From an uncultured bacterium (lineage in GTDB: Bacteria; Babelota; Babeliae; Babelales; Babelaceae): a stretch of DNA of 64,000 bases. The stretch's first letter is position 1; each line of letters opens with the position of its first letter. Below the pieces are notes generated by a model that saw only the letters and a program-made list of their open reading frames with translations, was not told the DNA's origin and ran no database searches. The stretch is taken from NCBI GenBank assembly GCA_963848965.1, contig CAWKFG010000004.1, forward strand, positions 96,001-160,000. The letters run 5' to 3'. Of this stretch, positions 1 through 59,456 are shown piece by piece. The position numbers and the translations under genes were made by a program.

Positions 1-2916
1 ATATTAGTTTATCAAACAAGCCCACACTCTCTTAAGAAAGTTGAAGAATATCTCAAGGGAAATACGATTGGAGAGTCACTACAAAAAGCTCGTGATCTTT
101 TAAAAGTTATAAGGTTTTTTGGAATAAGCAAAGATACTTTTGATGTTCTCTTACAAGCATGCGCGAAGACAACTAACTGTGAACCTAATGAGCTTTTTTA
201 CTCCCGAGAAGATCTTTATAAAGAGGCTACAGAGGAAAATTTAAAGTCATTATCCTTAAGCTCTTCTCCTCAAGCTACAGAAGAAAACAGCACTTGGATA
301 CGTAATGAGCTTAATACTCAGCTCAATCTTTCACCACTTGCTCGGCGCAAGATAGCCTTTACTATGGCATTACAGCACGAAAATCAAGATCCTACAACAA
401 GCCTTTCTTATATTATTGATCAAAAGTCATGGCAAGATCTAGAACTACTGTGCGGACCAAAGTCAAATCCACATTTCTGCTTTGCCAGCGCCGTTGATCG
501 TACATCAACAGAGATAGGCAAAGCACTCTTGTATACTAGGCTTTTACAACCGCTTACTACTATTCAAGAGCTTAAAAAAAGACAATCTATTGTTCAAGAA
601 CTACTTAAGCCATCGATATTTCAAGAACTGGATGCCCTTTTTGCACAGTTTTTTAAAGAGCCAAAACATGAAAATAATGTTCTATCTTTTCTCAACGGTG
701 CTGACTTTTTCAAAAATGAATTAAGCTATAATGAAATACAAATTCCTTTCTTTGCTAAATTCTCTCAGTGGTTTAATACCAATGAGATTACAGGCTTTTG
801 GAGCGCTTCTGATAAACTTATTTATAAAATTAGTAATACACTCCTACAGGGGAAGACAAAAACATATGAATTTTGCCTCAATGGTTTAGAGTATTTCTCG
901 ATAATCAAAAATAATAGGCCTCGTATAGATGAAACTATAGAATTCATTAAGTGTTGCTTTAAGTTCTTTATACCCAAGCTCGTTAACGCAACTTCTGAGA
1001 AGTCCTCTAAGCAGGCCTCTGATATGGTTTCTAAATATATAGTAAATGAAAAAATATCCTTAGGGATACCATTTACTAAGTACAAGCTACCTCAAGAGCC
1101 TTCATTCACATCTCCTATTTTTGGTGCTACACTCGGCTGGGCTTATAGCTCTTTTTTAGGAGCGCCGCACATGCTCACGGAAAGCATAATAACAACCTCA
1201 GTAATGCACGTTGTAACACACTTGCTCTATAGTGCGATGAGTGATAATAATTACAGTAGAGCAATTCAAGGATTAGCAGAGGCAAGCATATGCCTCCAGG
1301 AAAAGCTTATACTACTTTCAAAATATGTTAAATTTATCAAAGAGCTTCATACTTTTCTGAAAAATAAGTCACCAAAGCTTTTAGAGCTTATTCCTTCTTT
1401 ACAAGCTTTAGATCTAGGACAAGAAACTCCTCGTCAAAATGTATTCTCTTATTTCTGGCATTTTCCTACAGATATTACCAAGCAGTACATCTTTACAGAC
1501 GCAACGTCTTTCGAGCAGTTCATAAGTAAGCTCTGTAGTGCAACTTTTGATGAGCAAGGTAATATTTTTTCAAGGTATCATATTGGTCGTGTTATCGCAG
1601 TTTATCGCCTTGTAGATCTTCATAAAGAAAGACTTTCTGCCACTGCCACAGCACTTGCAGAACTTGACGCATATCTTTCAGTTGCACGATTGTATAATGA
1701 ATCGCAAGATAAACCAAATAAATATAGCTTTGTTAATTATGATACGTCAGAAACACCTGTTATTGATCTTAAAAACTTTTGGAATCCTTGTGTTGGATAT
1801 GATGCAGTAGCTAATACCTTAACTATGGGTATTGATAATCATCCAAAAGACCTTATAATTACAGGGCCAAATACCGGTGGTAAATCAACACTTATGAGGG
1901 CTCTTGTTTCTGCTATTTTAATGGGCCAATCATTAGGCATAGTTCCTGCACAAGAAGGATCACACATAACATTATTCTCAAATATACGCGCATATCTTAA
2001 TATAACTGATGATTCGTCGCTAGGTCTTTCTTTATTCTGGGCAAGTGCTAGGCGAGCTAAAGAGCTTTTAGAGGCAGCACAAAGACCAACAGGCCATTCA
2101 CTTACACTTTTTGATGAGATATATAATGGAACTGCTCCGAAAATAGGCGAATCTTTAGCCTATGGCACCCTTCTATTTATGACCGATAGCAATCATTGTC
2201 CTCGAAATATATGTATAACTACGACTCACTATCCTTTTGTACAACAATTACGAGAAGAGATAGATACCAAATGTGCTTATTATAGAATAAGCGATAAAGA
2301 AGATTCTGAAAATCGCTATAAACTTTTACCAGGTATTTATACAGAGTCCAACGGCCTTACTATTGCTCAAGAAGTAGGACTTAACGATGAAATTAGTAGA
2401 AACTCAAAACACTACTGTGAGCAAAAATACAAAAATAGTAATCTTAATTGCTTATTTAAGCCAGAAGCTCTCTTAAATACCTGTAAGGAAGAAGGGTTCA
2501 TATTCCTTATGAAACTTATAAAACAGAGCGAAATGAGAGCTTGGCTTCACGAGTTACTTTTAACAGCACCTTATGGCTATCATTTAGTAGAGCTAGCAAT
2601 AAAGCATGCAGTTAATCTCAAGTCATTCCTCAATCTTACAGATGATAAAGGCAGAACAGTACTTCATCGCGCAGCTATAAGAGATGCTAAAAACGGTGCA
2701 CTTATAAGCTTTCTTATCAAACAGGGAGCAAGCCTATGGATGTACGATGCTAAAGGCAAAAGGCCGCGAGACTACGCTTTACCGGACACTGTTGTCTGGA
2801 AGATATTAGTAGATGCAGAAAATACTCAAGGAACATATTTTGAGCAGCTACCTCAAGCATTAAGAGATAGACTCCAGAACTACATTACATATAATAAGAG
2901 AGCTGACGCTTTGTAA
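1..2916 (+). CDS. Divergent MutS-family (domain III/V) ATPase with C-terminal ankyrin repeat; 5' end lies outside the window
   Basis: Frame is open from base 1 through the ATG at 364. Walker A IITGPNTGGKST, Walker B LFDEIYNGT and TTHY motifs; ankyrin-like DDKGRTVLHRAA...GKRPRDYA near the C-terminus. Confidence 0.8.
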   Translation: MLVYQTSPHSLKKVEEYLKGNTIGESLQKARDLLKVIRFFGISKDTFDVLLQACAKTTNCEPNELFYSREDLYKEATEENLKSLSLSSSPQATEENSTWIRNELNTQLNLSPLARRKIAFTMALQHENQDPTTSLSYIIDQKSWQDLELLCGPKSNPHFCFASAVDRTSTEIGKALLYTRLLQPLTTIQELKKRQSIVQELLKPSIFQELDALFAQFFKEPKHENNVLSFLNGADFFKNELSYNEIQIPFFAKFSQWFNTNEITGFWSASDKLIYKISNTLLQGKTKTYEFCLNGLEYFSIIKNNRPRIDETIEFIKCCFKFFIPKLVNATSEKSSKQASDMVSKYIVNEKISLGIPFTKYKLPQEPSFTSPIFGATLGWAYSSFLGAPHMLTESIITTSVMHVVTHLLYSAMSDNNYSRAIQGLAEASICLQEKLILLSKYVKFIKELHTFLKNKSPKLLELIPSLQALDLGQETPRQNVFSYFWHFPTDITKQYIFTDATSFEQFISKLCSATFDEQGNIFSRYHIGRVIAVYRLVDLHKERLSATATALAELDAYLSVARLYNESQDKPNKYSFVNYDTSETPVIDLKNFWNPCVGYDAVANTLTMGIDNHPKDLIITGPNTGGKSTLMRALVSAILMGQSLGIVPAQEGSHITLFSNIRAYLNITDDSSLGLSLFWASARRAKELLEAAQRPTGHSLTLFDEIYNGTAPKIGESLAYGTLLFMTDSNHCPRNICITTTHYPFVQQLREEIDTKCAYYRISDKEDSENRYKLLPGIYTESNGLTIAQEVGLNDEISRNSKHYCEQKYKNSNLNCLFKPEALLNTCKEEGFIFLMKLIKQSEMRAWLHELLLTAPYGYHLVELAIKHAVNLKSFLNLTDDKGRTVLHRAAIRDAKNGALISFLIKQGASLWMYDAKGKRPRDYALPDTVVWKILVDAENTQGTYFEQLPQALRDRLQNYITYNKRADAL

Positions 2917-2979
2917 TTGGTAGAAGAAATAATTTTTCTAGATACAACGATATCTTTCTGTTGGGACTTAGGAATCACG

Positions 2980-3023
2980 AGCTGAAGGAGATTAGCTTAC
3001 TCATATCTAGTCAACCTTCAGCT
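2980..3023. terminator. Hairpin between convergent genes
   Basis: AGCTGAAGG...CCTTCAGCT inverted repeat downstream of both the MutS-like gene and the minus-strand peptide gene. Confidence 0.45.
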
Positions 3024-3119
3024 TGTTAAGTATTAAGCTTCTATTAGCTATCTAGCGCCTTTTACTAAAATAATTAACGTCTTTATTCAAGCCGATTTAA
3101 GCCTATAAATTATGCTCTA

Positions 3120-3281
3120 TCACTTCTTAATTGGCGGTATTTCATCATTTCGTGGTTTAGCACCTGATTCCATACGGAATCCAAGGGGCCAACCCAGAGT
3201 TAATAAAGAAGCATAACCTAACTCTTTTAATTGTGCTTTTTTGCTTACCGTATTTTCATTGTTGTACGTTGAAGGTGACAT
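3120..3281 (-). CDS. Putative lasso peptide precursor 1 (53 aa), not in ORF track
   Basis: Manual translation MSPSTYNNENTVSKKAQLKELGYASLLTL|GWPLGFRMESGAKPRNDEIPPIKK. GGAG RBS; leader L-12/G-8/T-2; core Gly1 and Glu9. Confidence 0.75.
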   Translation of the reverse strand: MSPSTYNNENTVSKKAQLKELGYASLLTLGWPLGFRMESGAKPRNDEIPPIKK

Positions 3282-3334
3282 GATATCTCCGTTATTGATT
3301 AAAGTAAAAATTCACTTTTTAATTCTTCCTCATC

Positions 3335-3363
3335 ATTGTAAATCTATCATAAAGGCTTGTCAA
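3335..3363 (-). promoter_or_regulatory. sigma70-type promoter for precursor 1
   Basis: Minus strand TTGACA-17 nt-TACAAT, about 55 nt upstream of the ATG at 3281. Confidence 0.65.
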
Positions 3364-3515
3364 AAAGACCCTTTGCCTTTAAAAATCTTGCTACCTAGTA
3401 ATTGCCTTATTTCATTAAAAACAGCAAATTTCTTTCTGGGATTATCCCCTAATTAAATTAGAGACAGCTGTTTATAATAGATCAACGAATAACAAGCTAA
3501 CACTGAGGGTAGCAG

Positions 3516-3543
3516 TTGACTTGGTTACATATTCCGCTAAAAT
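3516..3543 (+). promoter_or_regulatory. sigma70-type promoter for precursor 2
   Basis: TTGACT-16 nt-TAAAAT upstream of the ATG at 3650. Confidence 0.45.
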
Positions 3544-3649
3544 GTTACTATATAAATTATTGTTTTTAAATACCTCTAACTTTGGATAAAAATAAATTTT
3601 ATAAAATTTCAGATGTTAAGAATTTAATCTTTTAACTCATGGAGATACT

Positions 3650-3784
3650 ATGTTCATTACAAAAAACCATAACAACAAAAAAGCGAATGTTAAAGCGATT
3701 GGTAATGCTTCTTTAATTACCCTTGGTACTCGCGGTCACAGTGTTGAAATGGCTAAACCTATAAACTATGGTGTCAAAAGATAG
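3650..3784 (+). CDS. Putative lasso peptide precursor 2 (44 aa), not in ORF track
   Basis: Manual translation MFITKNHNNKKANVKAIGNASLITL|GTRGHSVEMAKPINYGVKR. GGAG RBS; leader V-12/G-8/T-2; core Gly1 and Glu8; leader is paralogous to precursor 1. Confidence 0.75.
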   Translation: MFITKNHNNKKANVKAIGNASLITLGTRGHSVEMAKPINYGVKR

Positions 3785-3815
3785 TAATACGGTTAATGAT
3801 AGCAATAAATTTAAT

Positions 3816-3846
3816 AAGGCATAGGTCACTTAATGACTTATGCCTT
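3816..3846. terminator. Hairpin terminator after precursor 2 and the convergent ankyrin gene
   Basis: AAGGCATAGGTCA...TGACTTATGCCTT stem-loop. Confidence 0.6.
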
Positions 3847-3877
3847 TACTAATTAAGAAATATGTTAATTTACTACA

Positions 3878-5269
3878 TTATACGGTATCAACAGCTGGAA
3901 TATTTCCTTTCAAAGATAAGAATAGCTCTTGAATAAGCTCTTTAGGCAACAACTGTAAATAATTTTGTGGTCGCGTAGAATCACTGCGTTGTGCAAGAGC
4001 AGCTATTTTCTTTAGAGCATGCTCACATAGCAACTGATATATTTGAGAGCGCTTTTCACTGCACTTTGAACCTTCACGCATAAGAATGATCTTAATAAGC
4101 ACAAGAGCTTCAAATGGATCTGTACCAAAATTAAGCAAGAGTTTAACAATTTCTATTCGGTTCTGAGCTACTGCATACATAAGAGCTCGAGATAAATGTG
4201 CTTGTTCTTCTTGCGTATAAGCAACAGCAGCATCAGAGCACACTAGCCATGTACGCACAGAATAAGGAACAAATAATTTAAGCCACGATAAAGAATACGA
4301 TAAAAATCCTTGGCTACGAGCCTGGGCTCTATCTTGAATTTCAATAAGGCATTTTTGAACATCTGTATAAGAATTTGTAATAATTGCATACTCAAGGGGA
4401 TTCGTAAAGCATGCTTGCAAAAGCTCTTTCATTGTTGTTTCGTTAACTCCATCAAAAACGAAAGGAAAGCTACTTCCCCCATTCTCTTCAGGCCTATTGA
4501 GTAAACCATAGATACAAAGGAGCCGCACTATTGCATTATACCTAGGTTCGCTAGTAAATATTCCATCTTTAATAAGATTGTGTCTAATCACAAATTCATG
4601 GAGATAATTAAGCGTTGCCCCCGCGCGAAGAAGCATTTCAACATATTTGGCATGACCGAGTACTATAGCAACCCATAGTGCATCTCTTGCTGAATTGCCC
4701 TTTATAGAAGCCTTGCAGCTTATAAGAAGCTTTACTAGAGATTCGTGATTATGCAAGATAGCTTGATAGAGAGGCCAACTTTTTTCAGCTTCCATACCGC
4801 CTATATGATATTTATCACAATTATTAATAAACTCAAGCCCATACCTATCTGGATGAGCTCCTTTATCAAGTGCTTCTTGCGCATCTACAAGGTCTCCTTT
4901 AATTGCAGCCCTGAGTAATGTACAATTAAGGTGAAACTGTAGTGGGTTCTCTGCTTTTATATGTAAGTAAGTAGTGAGTGAATCTGCACTATACTCATAC
5001 TCACTTTTATTAAAATGTGCCCCTTTTTCCAATAGATGAATACAGATATCCCAATACCCCTTATGTGCAGCACATTCTAAAGCTCTATTGCAACTCTTAT
5101 CTTTACTATTACCATTTGCACCCTGAGCAAGCAAAGCAGAAACTAGTGAAATATTATCTTTTTGAATAGCCTTTATTAATTGCATATCTAAGGAGGAACC
5201 CTTTTCCATGCTATAGCAGAAACTCTCTCCTAAAATTACAAGACTACTTAGTAAAAATCTAAAATACAC
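3878..5269 (-). CDS. Secreted ankyrin-repeat protein with C-terminal F-box-like motif
   Basis: Signal-like N-terminus, several ankyrin repeats, C-terminal NYLQLLPKELIQELFLSL. Confidence 0.85.
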   Translation of the reverse strand: MYFRFLLSSLVILGESFCYSMEKGSSLDMQLIKAIQKDNISLVSALLAQGANGNSKDKSCNRALECAAHKGYWDICIHLLEKGAHFNKSEYEYSADSLTTYLHIKAENPLQFHLNCTLLRAAIKGDLVDAQEALDKGAHPDRYGLEFINNCDKYHIGGMEAEKSWPLYQAILHNHESLVKLLISCKASIKGNSARDALWVAIVLGHAKYVEMLLRAGATLNYLHEFVIRHNLIKDGIFTSEPRYNAIVRLLCIYGLLNRPEENGGSSFPFVFDGVNETTMKELLQACFTNPLEYAIITNSYTDVQKCLIEIQDRAQARSQGFLSYSLSWLKLFVPYSVRTWLVCSDAAVAYTQEEQAHLSRALMYAVAQNRIEIVKLLLNFGTDPFEALVLIKIILMREGSKCSEKRSQIYQLLCEHALKKIAALAQRSDSTRPQNYLQLLPKELIQELFLSLKGNIPAVDTV

Positions 5270-5274
5270 GGCTG

Positions 5275-5763
5275 CTATCCCTTATTATTTTGAGCTTTAG
5301 AGCTATGTAGTTCTTCTCGTACTTTCATAAGCAAGATACCAAGCATATTCTTTCCTGTACCATCTCCGGCATCACCCCAATAAGCATCATTGGCAGTATG
5401 TTCAACAAGCAATGCATTACCAGTTGATAGAAGTATATCCTGTAAAGCTTTATGCTGCGTAAATTTAGCTCTTAGAGCTTCTAACATGATGTCATTTTTT
5501 ACCTGTTCCCAATCAGCTCTTAACGGCAACGACCGATTACGCCCTTGAGCTGCAACATCAATAGCTCGCACAGTGTTTCTAATTTCCTCTTCATACACAG
5601 TTCCTTCAAATTTCATCGCTTGAAAGTAGTGCTCAACTGTAGGCCATTTCTTTTCCTTAAGATAAATCTGGGCCGGATAAAAATTAGAAAATTCACCAAA
5701 CTTATCTGCTACTTTATAAAAGTTAATTGTGTTCATAGATAATATGTCTATTTTAATATACAT
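5275..5763 (-). CDS. NADAR/YbiA family N-glycosidase
   Basis: FSNFY, WPTVEHYFQAMKF, KFTQH, LLSTG, D.YWG.GDG.GKN.LG motifs; the true start may be the second Met. Confidence 0.92.
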   Translation of the reverse strand: MYIKIDILSMNTINFYKVADKFGEFSNFYPAQIYLKEKKWPTVEHYFQAMKFEGTVYEEEIRNTVRAIDVAAQGRNRSLPLRADWEQVKNDIMLEALRAKFTQHKALQDILLSTGNALLVEHTANDAYWGDAGDGTGKNMLGILLMKVREELHSSKAQNNKG

Positions 5764-5779
5764 TTTCTTCAGTGCTGTG

Positions 5780-6073
5780 CTAACTATCTATTGATTGAAT
5801 ACCACCAGTTTCTGGTACTTGAAAGACAATTACTCTTTCACAGACCTTACAATTATAATAATGGATCACCTTACTTTCTACAATAGGCGCCCATTGAGCC
5901 TTTTTGCAATATTCACAAACTACTACAAGTTTACGCTTGATTCGTGGAAATTTGGAAATCACCTTTTTTACTTTTTTATTTACATCTCCTACTACTTCTT
6001 TGTTATCTTGTTCCATTGCATGGATAGATATCATACAAAGACTAGCTACAAAAACCATTAACGATTGTTTCAT
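5780..6073 (-). CDS. Small secreted protein with CxxC...CxxC zinc-ribbon-like motif
   Basis: Signal peptide ending IHA|MEQ; CEYC and CKVC. Confidence 0.65.
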   Translation of the reverse strand: MKQSLMVFVASLCMISIHAMEQDNKEVVGDVNKKVKKVISKFPRIKRKLVVVCEYCKKAQWAPIVESKVIHYYNCKVCERVIVFQVPETGGIQSIDS

Positions 6074-6150
6074 AATTTTCTATTCCTATTAAAAGTAATC
6101 TAATTGTTAACTATGTTGAGTTTACAAGCAAATTATAGAGTATCAACAGC

Positions 6151-7836
6151 TCACTTATCCCGTGTTAAAAATAAAAATAGTTCTTTAATAAGCTCTTGAG
6201 GCAATACCTGTAAATAATTCTGTTGTTGGCCTTGATTATTAAATCTCGCAATAGTAACTATTTTTTGCAAGGCTCGCTCAAGTAAGAATTTGTAAATTTG
6301 ACAGCGCTTTTCACCACACTTTGAACCTTCGCGCATAAGAATAATCTTGATAAGAGCAAGAGCTTCAAAAGGATCTGTACCAAAATCAAGCAATAGTTTA
6401 ACAACTTCTTTACGATTCTGACCTACTGCATACATAAGAGCTCGTGAAAGCTGTGCCCGTTCTTCTTGTGTGTAAGCTATAGAATCATCTGACCATGTTA
6501 CTATTGCACGCAGAGAAAGAGGTACAATTGAAGACCCTAACACAGACAAACAATACGGCAAAAGATTTTGGTTGCGAGCACGCGCTCTACTTTGAAGCTC
6601 AGTAAGGCATTTTTGGACACCAAAATAAGAACCAGTGAGCGCAGCATACTCAAGAGGATCTGAAAACACTTTCTTGAAAACAGAACTTATGTGTGAGTTT
6701 TCTCGCATAGTTTGCAATATCGAACCACTAAACGGGTAAAATCGTAGAGGATAAGCTCGATTCTCTTGCCCTTCAGATTGATTATTATAACCATACATAC
6801 ATAGAAGCTTTAATATTTCGCATCGCTTTACAAAAAGATCCTCTTCTATAAGTATCTTTTCAAGTAAGTATTTAACCGAAAAGGAATAGCGACCTGGTAA
6901 CGCTCCTGCCTGTAAAAGCTCCTCAACACAAGCACTATGATGTGTACTTATAGCATGATCAATAATAGAGCCATGAGTATCGTCCTCAGAAGCATCTAAA
7001 ACAATTGAAGCCTTACATTTTATAAGAAGATTTATAAGTGCTTTATGATTATGAAAAACTGCTTGATAGAGAGGCCTTACTTGTTTCGCATCCCAAAAAC
7101 GTTCTTTTCCTATAAGCTCACGAGCATACCCATTAGGATCAGCACCGTGCTTAAGTGCTTCTTCTGCATCTTGGTAATTACCCTCTTTTGCAGCTTTTAT
7201 CAGCTTACAATTAAGGTCACACAGAGGTATATTCTTTGCTCTTATTATAAGAAGCTCTTTAAAGAGCGGAAATAATTGTGACTTTATGTGAATATGCCGA
7301 GCTCCTCTTTCTACTAACAGGAAAGCACTATCCCACTGCGCCTTATTTACTGCATCATCTAAAGCAGTTTTACCATCAAATGGATTAATTCCCGGCTTCG
7401 GTTTGTCCCTATAGTTACAATCTGCACCTGCATCTAAGAGTATTCTTACTATTTCTTTGTGCCCATATTTTGCAGCACGTCTTAACGGAGACTTTCTACA
7501 GTTTTTATGAGTAACCTGAGCCCCAGAAGCAAGAAGTAAACAAACCATATCTTTGTCACCTTTTTTGGCAGCAATACTTAAAGGAGTTTGATAGCTTTCG
7601 TGATGACTCATATACTTTATACGCTTACCAGTATAGACAGGCCATGTAGGACCTTTATAAAATTTGAAGACATAATTAGGATTTGCACCCTGCACAAGCA
7701 AACTGGAAGCTAGAACTTTATCCTCATTTTCAATAGCTTTTAAAAATTGCTTTTTCAAAGATATCGGTTTTTCCATTGCATAACAAAGCGGCATAAGCAA
7801 AAGGTTCAAGCTACATAAAACTATTCTAAAATACAT
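6151..7836 (-). CDS. Secreted ankyrin-repeat protein with C-terminal F-box-like motif (paralog)
   Basis: TPLSIAA, SPLRRAA and GKTALDDA ankyrins; C-terminal NYLQVLPQELIKELFLFL; C-terminal region highly similar to 3878-5269. Confidence 0.88.
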   Translation of the reverse strand: MYFRIVLCSLNLLLMPLCYAMEKPISLKKQFLKAIENEDKVLASSLLVQGANPNYVFKFYKGPTWPVYTGKRIKYMSHHESYQTPLSIAAKKGDKDMVCLLLASGAQVTHKNCRKSPLRRAAKYGHKEIVRILLDAGADCNYRDKPKPGINPFDGKTALDDAVNKAQWDSAFLLVERGARHIHIKSQLFPLFKELLIIRAKNIPLCDLNCKLIKAAKEGNYQDAEEALKHGADPNGYARELIGKERFWDAKQVRPLYQAVFHNHKALINLLIKCKASIVLDASEDDTHGSIIDHAISTHHSACVEELLQAGALPGRYSFSVKYLLEKILIEEDLFVKRCEILKLLCMYGYNNQSEGQENRAYPLRFYPFSGSILQTMRENSHISSVFKKVFSDPLEYAALTGSYFGVQKCLTELQSRARARNQNLLPYCLSVLGSSIVPLSLRAIVTWSDDSIAYTQEERAQLSRALMYAVGQNRKEVVKLLLDFGTDPFEALALIKIILMREGSKCGEKRCQIYKFLLERALQKIVTIARFNNQGQQQNYLQVLPQELIKELFLFLTRDK

Positions 7837-7865
7837 TACTTACCTTTCACTTACTATATTTACTA

Positions 7866-9218
7866 CTAGACGTAAGCACTGAGCAGCGTATAAGCATACT
7901 TTGAAAGAAAAAAAAGTGTTAATTCTTGCGTAATTTCACGAGGAAGAAAGTGTAAATAGTTGGATCGCACACTCAAGCCATCATATTGTGCAAGATCAAG
8001 TATACGCTGTTCAGCTTGTTTAAAAAGCGCTTCATAAAGCTGTGATTGTTCTGAATTAGGTTTTATGCCATCACGAAGTGCAATAACCCATGCTAATTCA
8101 AGAGCCGGATATGGATCTGCACCAAACTCAAGTAAACGCTCACTCATGCGCTTTCGTCCCTGTCCTATTGCACACATAAGAGCATTTGAAAGTCGAACGT
8201 GCTCTTCTTGAGTATAACGCACCGAGGGATCAGGATATTTTACTGAACAAGGATCCCAATACGTCTTCAAACATGTTAGATAGTATGTAGCAAGAGACTG
8301 ACAACGTGCTTGAGCAGTACGCTGAAGTTCCTTAAGCAGCTCGAACAATTCTTTAGCATCATACCATACAACTGCATGCTCAAGTGGATCTGGAAAGATC
8401 CTTTGATAAGTGTCCCTATAGCTCATGCTCTTATCTCTCTCACTCATACTTGGTGCCCCATATATACAAAACAATCGCATTATTTTGTATGTCGTAATAG
8501 GTTCACTATACCGCAATGTAGATAGAAGAGCCAAAAAATTTAAAGGCTTTGCCCCTGCCTCTAAAAGAGCTTTAACAACAGCTATTTGACCGAGTGCTGT
8601 AGCAGTATCAATAGCCTCTCCTTTAACATTAGCCTTACGACTAATAAGCAGCTCAGCAAGATTCTCATGTTTATGAATCATTGCTTGATGTAGGGGCCAG
8701 GTTTCTCTTACTTTATCAATAGGGTAACCACTTATATACAGGATATATGAATAGCCATCAGGGTCGGCACCTTGATCAAGCGCCTCTACCGCACTTTGAT
8801 AATTTCCTTCTTCTGCAGCTTTAAGCAATGTATTGTTAAGTTTAAAGGTACTTGTATCTGCTTTCAAGAGCATAAGCACAATGCCGTGTCTATTACAACA
8901 TACAGCATGATCCAAAGCAGTTTTTCCTTCTCCATCTTTTGCATTAAAATCTGCACCCTTGCTAAGAAGCAGCGCTACTATATCTTCGTGGCCCATTATT
9001 GTAGCCATTGTCAAAAGAGTACAACCATTACTATATCGAGTATCAATAATGTGAGGCTTCTCGTCAATAGGACTAGAAAGCAAAACAGTAACTTCCTGTA
9101 TCTTTCCACCCCAGACAGCTTCAAATAGATTTTTGTTATTTGGCACTTCTTCTTCCATACTATAGCAATAAGATCCATACAAGATTACGAGACTGCTCAA
9201 CAAAAATCTAAAATGCAT
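7866..9218 (-). CDS. Secreted ankyrin-repeat protein with C-terminal F-box-like motif (paralog)
   Basis: Ankyrins (GKTALDHA); C-terminal NYLHFLPREITQELTLFF; signal peptide nearly identical to 3878-5269. Confidence 0.88.
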   Translation of the reverse strand: MHFRFLLSSLVILYGSYCYSMEEEVPNNKNLFEAVWGGKIQEVTVLLSSPIDEKPHIIDTRYSNGCTLLTMATIMGHEDIVALLLSKGADFNAKDGEGKTALDHAVCCNRHGIVLMLLKADTSTFKLNNTLLKAAEEGNYQSAVEALDQGADPDGYSYILYISGYPIDKVRETWPLHQAMIHKHENLAELLISRKANVKGEAIDTATALGQIAVVKALLEAGAKPLNFLALLSTLRYSEPITTYKIMRLFCIYGAPSMSERDKSMSYRDTYQRIFPDPLEHAVVWYDAKELFELLKELQRTAQARCQSLATYYLTCLKTYWDPCSVKYPDPSVRYTQEEHVRLSNALMCAIGQGRKRMSERLLEFGADPYPALELAWVIALRDGIKPNSEQSQLYEALFKQAEQRILDLAQYDGLSVRSNYLHFLPREITQELTLFFLSKYAYTLLSAYV

Positions 9219-32012: not shown

Positions 32013-35000
32013 CTAATGGGCCAAAAACTTATAGTCAAAAATTTGCTCATTTAAAAAACCAACAAACTCATCGGTTGCTATATCGATATTATCAATAAAT
32101 CGGTTACGTGATACATTAGAGCGACCTGACTTCCAAACGTGCTCCTGAGGGTTAAGGTCAGGTGCGCAAGGTGGAAACTGAATAAGATGAAATTTATGCT
32201 TGGTTTCAGCTAAAAATGATTTAATTTTTGAGGATTTATGCCATATAGCATTATCCCATATAATAACAATTTTATAATTTTTGTACTCATTTCCGATTGA
32301 ATTCAACACTTTGCAAGTTTCATCTGAATTAGCCCCTATTGCTTTGAAAGCATGCTCTTTGCCGTTAGAAAGATTCAAAAAACCATAGATACATCTAAGC
32401 TGTCGATTACTTGAAGTAGGGTCGAGAACTGGCGCATTAGCGAAGAGATTGTTTTTTTTTCGCCATGTTTCCAGTTCCCGCCACATCGAACCCACCATGC
32501 AGATTTAGTGCAGTGGGCTCTCCTGTTCTTTTCGCATTAGGGTTTATGTGACTCATCATGCTGGTTCCACTTTCGGTCCTTGATAGTACCTTATCTCGTA
32601 GTCATTATATAGTTTGAGTGTCTTGTATATCAGGTCGTTACTCCATCTCTTCCAGCCGAACCCCTTTTGGCCTCTTGCTTTCGCTAGGTGCCTTCTCACT
32701 TTGTTTTCTATCCATCGCCTTACGTTCTTGAAGCATCTTCCGGAGTTCCCCGTCCTAAAGTAGTTTGCCCATCCCCTTATTATCGGGTTCATTAGCTCTA
32801 TTATCCTTTGTACAGGTTGTGACATGTATCGCTTGCATATGTCTCTTATTTTTGTCACGAGCTTGTCACGGGCTCCTTTCTTTGGAGTTGTCTGTGGCCT
32901 TATCTTGCCGCTGAGTGACTTTACTAGTCTCACATCGAAGCCTAAGAAGCCGAAGCTTTCGCCTTTGCTTAGATCTACTATCTTTGTTTTCTCGTGGTTG
33001 ATCTGCAGATCGAGTTTTTGTAGCTCTTCTTGTAGTCTTCTCGGTATTGCTTTCGTTAGCCATTCTTGGTTGTAGTGTCCATCGATCAGCACTACAAGGT
33101 CATCTGCGAATCTTGCGTATCCTACGTTTGTGTAGATGCTCCAGCTGGTCGTCTCTTTTGCTTCTTCCAGCATCTTGTCTATGTCGTTCAGATAGATGTT
33201 TGCTAGCAGAGGCGACAGCGGCCCTCCTTGTGGTATGCCTCTTTTACCGCTTGCTTTGCATATCAGCTTTAGCAGGTGCATGATTTGTTTGTCTTGCACC
33301 CTTTGGGCTATATGCTTGAATAGTATGTCGTGTCTTACGCTGTCGAAGTGTGCTTTGATATCCAGGTCAATTACTTTAGTTTTTCCTAGGAGTATCGCTT
33401 GTTTCACACTTTCTATTGCTTTGTGAGGGTCCCGGTTTGGTCTGTATCCATATGATCCTTTTTGGAAGTCTGCTTCAAATATCGGTTCGAGTATGAGCTT
33501 TAATGCGCCTTGCACTACTCTGTCCTTTATGGATGGAATTGATAGTGTACACATTTTTCCGTTGCTTTTCGGTATCGTTTGCTTACGGTTTGCTAGTGGG
33601 TGATAGTTCTCTTCTCTAAGTTCGCTTTGGATCCCTTGCAGAAACTTATCTACCCCTTCTCTTTCTATCATTCCGAACGTCACGCCGTCTATTCCTGGCG
33701 CTCCGTTGTTCCGCTTGGCCAGCGTGTAGGATTGTTTGAGCGTTTCCATCTTGGTTATATGGATATAGAGCCCCCAGAACTTATGGGGCTTGTCGGTCTT
33801 CGCCTTAATGTATATTTTCCTTTGCACGTCTTGCAGTTTGGTTGGCTTCTTTATCATCTTGCCTTGCCTCCCATATAAAGGAATCGCTAACCGAGAGCGT
33901 TATCATTGCTCTCAACAGTAGGGGTCCTTCGCTCTGCGGTTATTAATCGCTTCTTCGCTACTAGTACCCCATCCGACACCCTCTCGCTTTCGATGCACTT
34001 CCCAGGTGCTCTGGTTATAGCATCTACTCATTTTTTTTCCGTCTGTATTTCTCAGATGGGCGAGTAGGATCTCCCGAGTTGCCGTTGTTGTCCTTGCAAT
34101 CGTGCTGTTGCTGTCTACCCCGTCCAGATTAATTGTCGTATCAGTCAGACTTTCGCCAACTAATGGTGCCTTCGCCAAAGAAGTACAGGCTCGGCTCTGG
34201 AATCTCCCAACTTTCGAGGCTACTTTGCATTCACTTTCCGTTACGGCCCGATTGCTTGCTCATCCTCCCTTGGAGAACTTTGTTGAGAGGCTTCAGCTCC
34301 TTCAGTTTCTTGTTGGGCTGCTCTCCTAGCTACGAGTTCTGACTTTTCTCTCGATGGGTCTACCTGTGGGTTCCCATAGGACATCAATAGCCTTGCTGCG
34401 GCGCACACATCAATTTTAGGAAATTCACCTTTTGGAAGCCATATCTTTTGTGTTGTAGTTTGCGTTGTTAAGAACATCTCGTCTTCAGCTAAAACAACAG
34501 TATTAGGTTCGTTCAGTGTATCAATAATCCATTGTTTGTTCTTTTGGATCCATTCATCTATAGTTTTTTGATCTCTGTTTTTATATTGCTTATCCGGCTT
34601 ATGATAAGTAAATTTGGCATCTTTAAAAATGATATAAATCGATGTTTTGGATTTATATTCAACTCCATATTGTTCTTTAATTAGATGCGCCAGAATCGCT
34701 GTAGTCCAAAAATTAGAATTATACCCAAATGCTTCTGGTGTTGAGTTATGCAGAATTGTAATAATTTGCTCTCTCTGATTCCTCGTCAATAAACGTTTTG
34801 GATATCTCTTTCTATCTTTTAATGCTGCAATTCCTCGTTCTATGTACTTTTTTCTAAGGTCAAATGCATATTTTTGGCCATACCTTGTTAAACGCTTGAT
34901 TAGTTCAGGATTAGCTGCGCAGTCAACTAATAATATTGCCTGTATTCTTTTTAATTCATTAGCAGTACATTCTTTATCATTCTGTAATTCTACTAATTTA

Positions 35001-59251: not shown

Positions 59252-59328
59252 GGTGGATGTAGCTCAGTTGGTAGAGCATCAGATTGTGGCTCTGAGGGTC
59301 ATGGGTTCGAATCCCATCATTCACCCCA
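59252..59328 (+). tRNA. tRNA-His (GTG)
   Basis: G-1, cloverleaf, anticodon arm TCAGA-TTGTGGC-TCTGA, GGTTCGAATCC, encoded CCA. Confidence 0.97.
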
Positions 59329-59380: not shown

Positions 59381-59456
59381 CGGGGCGTGGCGCAATTGGT
59401 AGCGCACTCGCTTTGGGAGCGAGGGGTTGTCAGTTCGAGTCTGGCCGCCCCGACCA
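59381..59456 (+). tRNA. tRNA-Pro (TGG)
   Basis: CGGGGCG...CGCCCCG acceptor stem, anticodon arm CTCGC-TTTGGGA-GCGAG, encoded CCA. Confidence 0.97.

Follow-up and report, generated by a model that had tools for sequence, protein, structure and literature searches.

The window analysed here is a stretch of 64 kb (G000:C4:96001-160000) from a Babeliales assembly of 1.73 Mb in 5 contigs (37% G+C, 88.7% complete), and its subject is a pair of short, divergent open reading frames (ORFs) close to the left end, which are probably precursor genes of a lasso peptide system (Table 1). The two frames that a preliminary description of this DNA had given, with their translations, are present and are paralogues of each other (18/37 residues identical, 49%, E=8e-7 by BLASTP). 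The ORF on the minus strand, for which a single ATG is the candidate start, comprises a leader of 29 amino acids (aa), MSPSTYNNENTVSKKAQLKELGYASLLTL, and a core of 24 aa, GWPLGFRMESGAKPRNDEIPPIKK; the one on the plus strand has a leader of 25 aa, MFITKNHNNKKANVKAIGNASLITL, followed by a core of 19 aa, GTRGHSVEMAKPINYGVKR. The first residue of a lasso core is Gly or another small one, an Asp or Glu at positions 7-9 serves the isopeptide ring, and core lengths of 19 and 24 aa are within the usual range for ring, loop and tail. The rules for leaders and cores applied in the earlier description fit both ORFs: position -12 of the leaders is V or L, -8 is G and -2 is T; the cores start with Gly1 and have a Glu at position 8 (plus-strand ORF) or 9 (minus-strand ORF), from which a Gly1-Glu8 and a Gly1-Glu9 ring, respectively, are predicted. 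Cys is absent from both cores. The penultimate Thr of the leader is a conserved recognition residue of lasso precursors, according to PMC7549694 and PMC10368454.

The GGAGATA reported before each ATG was also found, 2 nt 5' of the start codon in both cases (GGAG 5 nt upstream), the sequences ending at the two ATGs being ...ACGGAGATATC-ATG and ...ATGGAGATACT-ATG. Of the other signals attributed to the two genes, the sigma-70-like promoters stand as matches to the consensus only, and the downstream hairpins hold for the plus-strand ORF, where the run of T that follows the stem is weak, but not for the minus-strand ORF, directly 3' of which there is no notable folding (z 0.08). The hairpin nearest to the latter is shared with the convergent MutS-like gene that opens the window, and is possibly a two-way terminator for both.

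All frames between stops with a length of 20-160 aa (45,711) were scanned, first by motif and then with a hidden Markov model, and their start codons were inspected; this extended the leader pattern to a family of 17 intact precursors in the genome, 14 on contig C4 and 3 on contig C1. The window ORFs have E values of 1e-13 to 1e-16 in the whole-genome profile search, and share with the family the T at -2, the Gly1 with Glu8 or Glu9 and a core length within the 15-25 aa of its members. In the alignment, T(-2) and Gly1 are invariant (17/17), G(-8) is present in 15/17, and the acidic residue is Glu8 in 10/17 precursors and Glu9 in 7/17. Over leader positions -10 to -1 the mean identity between pairs is 0.47, as compared with 0.09 over core positions 2-7 and 0.11 over core positions 10-17, and the paralogues are 20-39% identical. 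As judged from these sequences, a conserved leader in front of a hypervariable core is the look of a precursor family of ribosomally synthesised peptides with post-translational modifications (RiPPs). The start of the 85129 precursor (GTG) is uncertain.

The precursors occupy at least 7 places on two contigs. A stretch of 17 kb (C4:82978 to 99784) holds eight of the 17, together with the genes for a B and a C enzyme described below, four adjoin a second cluster, and five are orphans, more than 300 kb from any B or C gene or on contig C1. The 17-kb stretch also contains a TnpB-type (Cas12f1-like TNB) fragment (L015:4624-4839), an IS4/5-family (DDE_Tnp_1) transposase (L015:5546-6367) and, at C4:85744-85854 and C4:92107-92042, two truncated fragments resembling precursors, the latter two being left out of the 17, as were weaker matches without the motif. 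A recent segmental duplication was considered as the origin of the window pair and rejected, as the precursor DNA had no other copy in the genome when window positions 2901-4000 were searched against it with blastn.

In the preliminary description the pair was regarded as free-standing, with no maturation genes nearby. For the 64 kb themselves the statement holds above threshold, with no Transglut_core3 or PqqD match and one sub-threshold Asn_synthase match (C4:108809-109033, 19.1 bits, cut-off 21). However, the window starts at C4:96001 and the genes for B and C end just before it, so the apparent lack of maturation genes is an artefact of the window edge, and claims of absent partner genes in a window need checking past that edge. 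The whole genome has three Asn_synthase-type (cyclase) genes and two Transglut_core3 (peptidase) genes, and the RiPP recognition element (RRE) is fused to the peptidase in B. A single gene, the MutS-like one, separates C from the ORF pair, and the family members at C4:91994 and C4:92335 are contiguous with B.

Table 1 Features of the precursor locus and related genes. Positions without prefix are those of the window.
Feature	Position	Strand	Remarks
Lasso precursor gene, 53 aa	3120..3281	-	Family profile match E=5.5e-16; motif positions
Lasso precursor gene, 44 aa	3650..3784	+	Family profile match E=2.6e-13; B complex model
B (fused RRE/peptidase)	C4:92680-93429		Ends 2.6 kb to the left of window base 1; distance to the ORFs 5.7-6.2 kb
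C (cyclase)	C4:93439-95241		Ends 760 nt before window base 1; 3.9 and 4.4 kb from the ORFs
C4 precursor starts	83082, 83436, 84657, 85129, 91994, 92335, 99281, 99650, 417366, 421309, 795650, 795863, 796132, 796337
C1 precursor starts	407470, 432532, 448619
Sigma-70-like promoter match TTGACA-17-TACAAT	3335..3363	-	11/12; 54 nt upstream of the minus-strand ORF
Sigma-70-like promoter match TTGACT-16-TAAAAT	3516..3543	+	10/12; 107 nt upstream of the plus-strand ORF
Perfect 13-bp hairpin	3816..3846	+	32 nt past the stop of the plus-strand ORF; z -3.99, 0/200 shuffles as stable
Hairpin with 12-bp stem	2977..3026	.	Flanked by the convergent MutS-like gene and the minus-strand ORF; z -3.59 (+), -2.48 (-)
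MutS-like gene, 3' part (971 codons) of ~1,193	1..2916	+	MutS_V 72.9 bits, MutS_III 48.4 bits
Precursor-adjacent MutS-like genes	window 1-2916; L015:7991-11497; L017:1308-4358; L018:7400-10198; L019:4295-7327

B matches Transglut_core3 (PF13471) with 62-64 bits (cut-off 26) and the NCBIfam model lasso_biosyn_B2 (NF033537) with 66 bits (cut-off 33), and across 28 B sequences the triad residues C188 and H220 are invariant, D232 being present in at least 90%. When used alone against the PDB, the B sequence has no significant match (best E=1.1). The profile made from the 28 sequences matches TfuB1 (6JX3_B, E=2.7e-5) and TbiB1 (5V1U, E=0.1) over positions 5-79, and it is because of this match of the N-terminus that we regard B as a fused RRE-peptidase. 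C matches Asn_synthase (PF00733) with 73.6 bits (cut-off 21), its top NCBIfam matches are lasso/macrolactam cyclases, and its PP-loop S245-G-G-x-D-S250 is invariant in 33 sequences. The protein starts with MPLIAG and therefore has no Cys2 glutaminase nucleophile. These features place C, as a predicted enzyme, in the asparagine-synthetase-like macrolactam synthetase family, at the level of the family and not of the equivalog.

The fit between leader and enzyme was modelled with B (alignment of 28) and the plus-strand ORF (alignment of 17), along with three controls. The ipSAE values were 0.75, 0.75 and 0.73, with 0.00 for the best control; the mark used for this score is passed by 116/157 solved complexes and 2/215 mismatched pairs. 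The partner has a pLDDT of 55-57, and at least 55% of the contacts agree between runs. In the model, leader residues 13-21 contact B residues 19-36 (the RRE strand), and residues 23-28 (I-T-L/G-T-R) contact B residues 187-189 and 217-221, which is the Cys188/His220 site. Lasso RRE-leader complexes have already been solved, and a pass therefore indicates likeness to these and is no proof of binding.

The distribution of the two components over the phylum points in the same direction. Of 261 phylum genomes, 16 have B and 15 have a match to the precursor profile (E<=1e-3); the 15 are all B-positive, with no match in the 245 B-negative genomes (the B-positive ones span 8/21 families, and kin are not independent). 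The present genome has 17 profile matches and the next highest 9, and in a set of 41 genomes, comprising G000 and those closest to it, the same three have both lasso B and matches to the profile. Together with the 15 further paralogues and the B model, this co-occurrence (15/16 against 0/245) bears out the proposal that the window ORFs are lasso-type precursors. In the loci of relatives, the same precursor type is found in tandem arrays beside B-C, often just 3' of C (L037, L039, L042). One of these loci, L039:2846-4110 (+), has three ORFs 3' of the cyclase with 3, 3 and 4 in-frame cassettes (..TELG.AT.LTL/G......E..), 10 cores in total, adjoined by an McjD-like ABC exporter; multi-core precursors are also seen at L042:9677-10368, L122 and L134, and were not evident in the lasso literature searched.

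In the protein collection the cyclase has about 33 relatives with identities of 30-60%, almost all being metagenome proteins, with P0001 and P0002 at 60%. A scan of genome contigs with the three in-genome cyclases only gave 266 pattern matches and 0 confirmed; it was redone with the 33-sequence alignment. The closest cyclase loci in genome contigs (30-38%) are mostly titled Candidatus Babeliales/Babeliaceae or 'uncultured bacterium', as compared with 23-28% for proteobacterial lasso producers; Babeliales belongs to Candidatus Babelota (Dependentiae). A FastTree of 81 cyclases was built from 78 of the 79 genome-contig loci (ORFs of at least 480 aa) and the three of G000, with SH-like support only. 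The three cluster together (support 97) within a clade (support 100) of Babeliales-type and two long-branched metagenome-assembled genome (MAG) sequences, and 61 mostly proteobacterial sequences stand apart. The two long branches are from contigs titled Phycisphaerales and Rickettsiaceae (L049, L051), which encode cyclase and B homologues of about 30% identity and group with the Babeliales clade; they join each other, which makes their placement unsafe, and the precursor profile had no match in either locus.

Considering the genes, their motifs, the domain families of the enzymes, the co-occurrence and the modelled leader/B interface, we think it likely that the two window ORFs are functional 'A' genes of a lasso system that has its enzyme genes immediately to the left of the window. 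Their expression, as well as the cleavage, cyclisation and threading of the peptides and the role of the latter, would follow as predictions from sequence. The leader (..[IVL]xE[LI]GxASxLTL) would bind the N-terminal RRE of the fused B, and the transglutaminase-like Cys-His-Asp domain of the same protein would cleave after Thr(-2)-Leu(-1). C would then adenylate Glu8 (plus-strand ORF) or Glu9 (minus-strand ORF) and link the activated Glu to the new Gly1 amine, giving lariats of 19 and 24 residues, which would be of the class-II type because neither core has a Cys. The pair would make up the downstream part of a loosened B-C-(MutS-like)-A-A locus, which lies within the 17-kb stretch of 8 precursors, and over the genome two B and three C enzymes appear to serve 17 precursors.

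Which of these enzymes would act on the window pair is suggested by the leaders. The second cluster, 700 kb away at C4:791-798 kb (L016:5276-12112), is composed of an ABC-2 ATPase and permease, B, C, a convergent second cyclase and four tandem precursors. Its two cyclases are 65% identical overall and nearly identical over residues ~85-300, a mosaic which suggests gene conversion. At positions -6/-5, A-S is common to the window pair and the precursor beside the neighbouring B (C4:92335), while V-S is found in 4/4 second-cluster precursors and 0/13 others. This suggests that two leader classes exist, a split that would favour the neighbouring B and C for the window pair, and it is from the leader sequences that we infer this assignment.

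Several observations weigh against reading the pair as working precursors of the neighbouring enzymes. The window precursors do not directly adjoin B/C on their contig: a 3.6-kb gene lies between them, and of the two precursors one is encoded on the other strand. The cyclases score far under the curated NCBIfam cut-offs (90 against 525 for NF033535, 86-119 against 300 for NF033561, with 90 and 86 for the C next to the window), the RRE of B is visible only with the family profile, and Pfam PqqD has no match in the whole genome at E<=1, hence no stand-alone RRE. The nearest cyclase loci retrieved are 38% (genome contigs) and 41% (metagenome contigs) identical, and no ortholog of the window ORFs was retrieved from them. 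The 1-kb region is not enriched in promoter-like sites (7 against 4.7 +/- 2.3 in shuffles), a terminator scan of the region returned 0 sites and did not call the 3816-3846 hairpin, and none of the RNA runs searched for window positions 2950-3900 covers the stretch. Contigs from three DNA runs (three studies, low depth) partly cover it, with five pieces at least 95% alike, which is uninformative on expression or selection and leaves parts of the stretch without cover. Precursor fragments and remnants of insertion sequences nearby show that the region also decays, and the lasso products of the window ORFs are predicted from the genes.

The preliminary description had favoured free-standing precursors matured in trans; the enzymes would then be distant ones, for example those of the second cluster (C4:792-798 kb), in place of the neighbouring B and C. 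Maturation in trans seems to be real in this genome, where five members are more than 300 kb from B/C or on contig C1, and the idea of a dispersed system stands for these orphans; the window pair, too, has its own promoter-like sites, and another gene separates it from C. For the pair itself, however, we find this unlikely, as B and C are on the same contig, 3.9-6.6 kb away (about 4 kb for the nearest), the leaders are of the A-S kind like that of the precursor beside the neighbouring B, in contrast to V-S in 4/4 of the second cluster, and the model with the neighbouring B passes its controls. Less likely still is the view that the ORFs are in decay, left over from a lasso cluster which insertions and rearrangements broke up, and are no longer expressed or processed. 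The TnpB-type fragment, the transposase and the truncated precursors within 17 kb would agree with decay, as would the inversion of one precursor relative to B-C and the lack of an RNA run over the stretch, but both frames are intact, with a Shine-Dalgarno-like GGAG and strong -35/-10 matches, and T-2, G1, E8/9 and G-8 are all kept despite the 20-39% identity among paralogues. A MutS-like gene is moreover found near B in 8/15 other B-positive genomes, and because it stands near B elsewhere too, the intervening gene is no sign of disruption. That the ORFs are chance frames, or other small proteins sharing the N-terminal motif, can practically be dismissed: they are short, match no Pfam or NCBIfam family and lie in AT-rich intergenic DNA prone to ORFs and promoter-like sites, but the genome-wide profile E values, the 17 paralogues with their invariant T-x-G and fixed acidic position, the strict co-occurrence with lasso B over 261 genomes and the same ORF type in tandem beside B-C in relatives all speak for genuine precursors.

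Read as precursors of the neighbouring enzymes, the window ORFs belong to a system that can be compared with known ones, and which agrees in its testable sequence features with the class-II type with a fused B. It would depart from known lasso systems in the lineage of its enzymes, the number and dispersal of its precursors, the MutS-like neighbour and the reduced genome, that of a probable intracellular parasite of protists. In microcin J25 (McjABCD), a B protein in which an N-terminal domain for leader binding is fused to a Cys protease domain acts with an Asn-synthetase-like C, and the ring is Gly1-Glu8. The fused B, the Asn-synthetase-like C and an 8-residue ring, as predicted for the plus-strand ORF, are found here too; in contrast, the leaders are unrelated in length, the precursors are many, and the cluster next to the window lacks an McjD-type exporter, none being seen from C4:78001 to window base 9218, while the second cluster has its ABC-2 ATPase/permease pair. 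No isopeptidase was recognised beside the cluster next to the window. The prochlorosins, for which one lanthionine synthetase serves many dispersed, hypervariable precursors, resemble the present family in their conserved leader, variable cores and many precursor genes, several of them far from the enzymes, although they are of a different RiPP class and chemistry. A description of a prochlorosin-like arrangement for lasso peptides was not found in the literature searched.

For TfuB1 (fusilassin, 6JX3) and TbiB1 (thermobaculin, 5V1U), about 75 N-terminal residues of B align and the modelled leader lies on the equivalent strand; unlike these, the RRE is here fused to the peptidase and not a separate B1, and is missed by Pfam PqqD. 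The microcin J25 system is covered in PMC11420955 and PMC7549694. Proteobacterial class II systems with a fused RRE-B (astexin, caulosegnin, caulonodin, rubrivinodin) follow the same A/B/C logic and have clusters with 2-3 precursors each, according to PMC7549694. Beside cyclases of Roseateles/Paucibacter (L093, L108), Phenylobacterium (L071, L072) and Hyphomonas (L110, L111) there are precursor-like ORFs that likewise have a leader of the form ..LG.A...T.G, then Gly1 with an acidic residue at 8/9, and these alpha- and betaproteobacterial ORFs match the family profile weakly (E 0.04-0.2). The proteobacterial cyclases are, however, only 23-28% identical to the present ones, which form a separate FastTree clade (support 100), and there are 17 precursors here instead of 1-3, in a reduced 1.7-Mb genome of a probably obligate intracellular bacterium.

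The MutS-like gene between C and the precursors starts at C4:95335, 94 nt past the cyclase gene, and its product has a hydrophobic N-terminus and a weak C-terminal ankyrin match; the ESM Atlas gave no usable match for it. Of the 10 MutS_V genes in the genome, one encodes a canonical MutS, and the other nine are paralogues of the window-opening gene, some with ankyrin. Five of these nine are 34-698 nt from a precursor, three of them co-directional with gaps of 34, 103 and 143 nt. Random placement gave a mean of 0.29 such cases, with five or more in 1/200,000 trials, a figure that duplication of a linked MutS-like/precursor pair would inflate; the paralogues are old, with no DNA similarity. In the other B-positive genomes, a MutS-like match is found 1.9-5.3 kb from B in 8/15 (G146, G242, G009, G006, G109, G151, G168, G155), which corresponds to 10/38 match rows, with less than 1 row expected by chance according to a rough estimate. 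Against a dedicated role, the MutS-like family is present in 223/261 phylum genomes (E<=1e-20), and the B-negative genome G018 has a full-length relative of the long form. The linkage of MutS-like genes and precursors is real but unexplained.

Other genes near the precursors were noted. Just downstream of two precursors, L015:1767-4322 (-) is an operon for a sulfotransferase, a DXD glycosyltransferase (weak TcdA/TcdB-type match) and a second sulfotransferase, with signal-like N-termini; it was rejected as a candidate for lasso tailoring, as the lasso loci L037-L195 contain no homolog of it and paralogues occur on C2 as well as at C4:299-317 kb. At L020:6532-8732 (+), directly after an orphan precursor, come genes for an ABC ATPase and an ABC-2 permease, a possible export/immunity pair, which was examined as a paralogue of the ABC pair of the second cluster and showed no specific link to it (ATPases 35% identical, permeases barely alignable). 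Within a few kb of another orphan precursor are a protein with RRXRR and HNH domains (an IscB-like set; L018:14162-15451, -) and a Peptidase_S9 hydrolase of 300 aa (L018:15866-16765, -), which we take to be much shorter than lasso isopeptidases. Within the window, positions 3878-9218 (-) code in tandem for three paralogues with ankyrin repeats (463, 561 and 450 aa), which share signal-like N-termini and a conserved C-terminal block, and a NADAR-domain gene is found at 5275-5763. At 34236-34369 (-) there is a D1-D4 element of a group II intron (84 bits), and two tRNA genes are found at 59253-59325 and 59381-59453 (+).

Full-text searches found no literature linking lasso peptides with Dependentiae, Babeliales, Babelota or isolate names (the Tietz et al. 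2017 survey was outside their scope), and the sole co-mention of lasso and the phylum was incidental. The surveys found to mention biosynthetic gene clusters in Dependentiae made no mention of lasso, and in the genomics papers searched for this phylum the terms MutS, asparagine synthase, bacteriocin, secondary metabolite and transglutaminase do not occur. Such clusters may well have been picked up already by automated pipelines in MAG surveys. Neither multi-core precursors nor adjacency to MutS-like genes was found described for lasso systems in the same literature. The lasso class is thus known and its expanded and dispersed form new, expression and product being predicted.

Lasso peptides have usually been described in free-living bacteria, in which one cluster has one to three precursors. 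The probable Babeliales (Dependentiae) affiliation fits the probable intracellular protist parasite proposed in the preliminary description, and this 1.7-Mb genome, apparently of an obligate parasite of that kind, keeps 2 peptidases, 3 cyclases and 17 precursors. A broader reading, which we put forward tentatively and consider doubtful when all of its parts are taken jointly, is that Babeliales have a lasso lineage of their own that is run as a combinatorial library, in which two or three enzyme sets would process dispersed hypervariable precursors (17 here; multi-core, with 3-4 cassettes per ORF, in relatives). The MutS-like ATPases would be a working part of it, with a role in immunity, regulation or delivery, and the peptides would be directed against the protist host or rival intracellular microbes and would not be ordinary bacteriocins. 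With its conserved leaders and variable cores, the family is a natural substrate panel for the tolerance of one lasso enzyme pair, and it offers new lasso scaffolds from a phylum that is uncultured. For a reduced genome the outlay is unusually large, which suggests that the peptides matter for life in the host cell.

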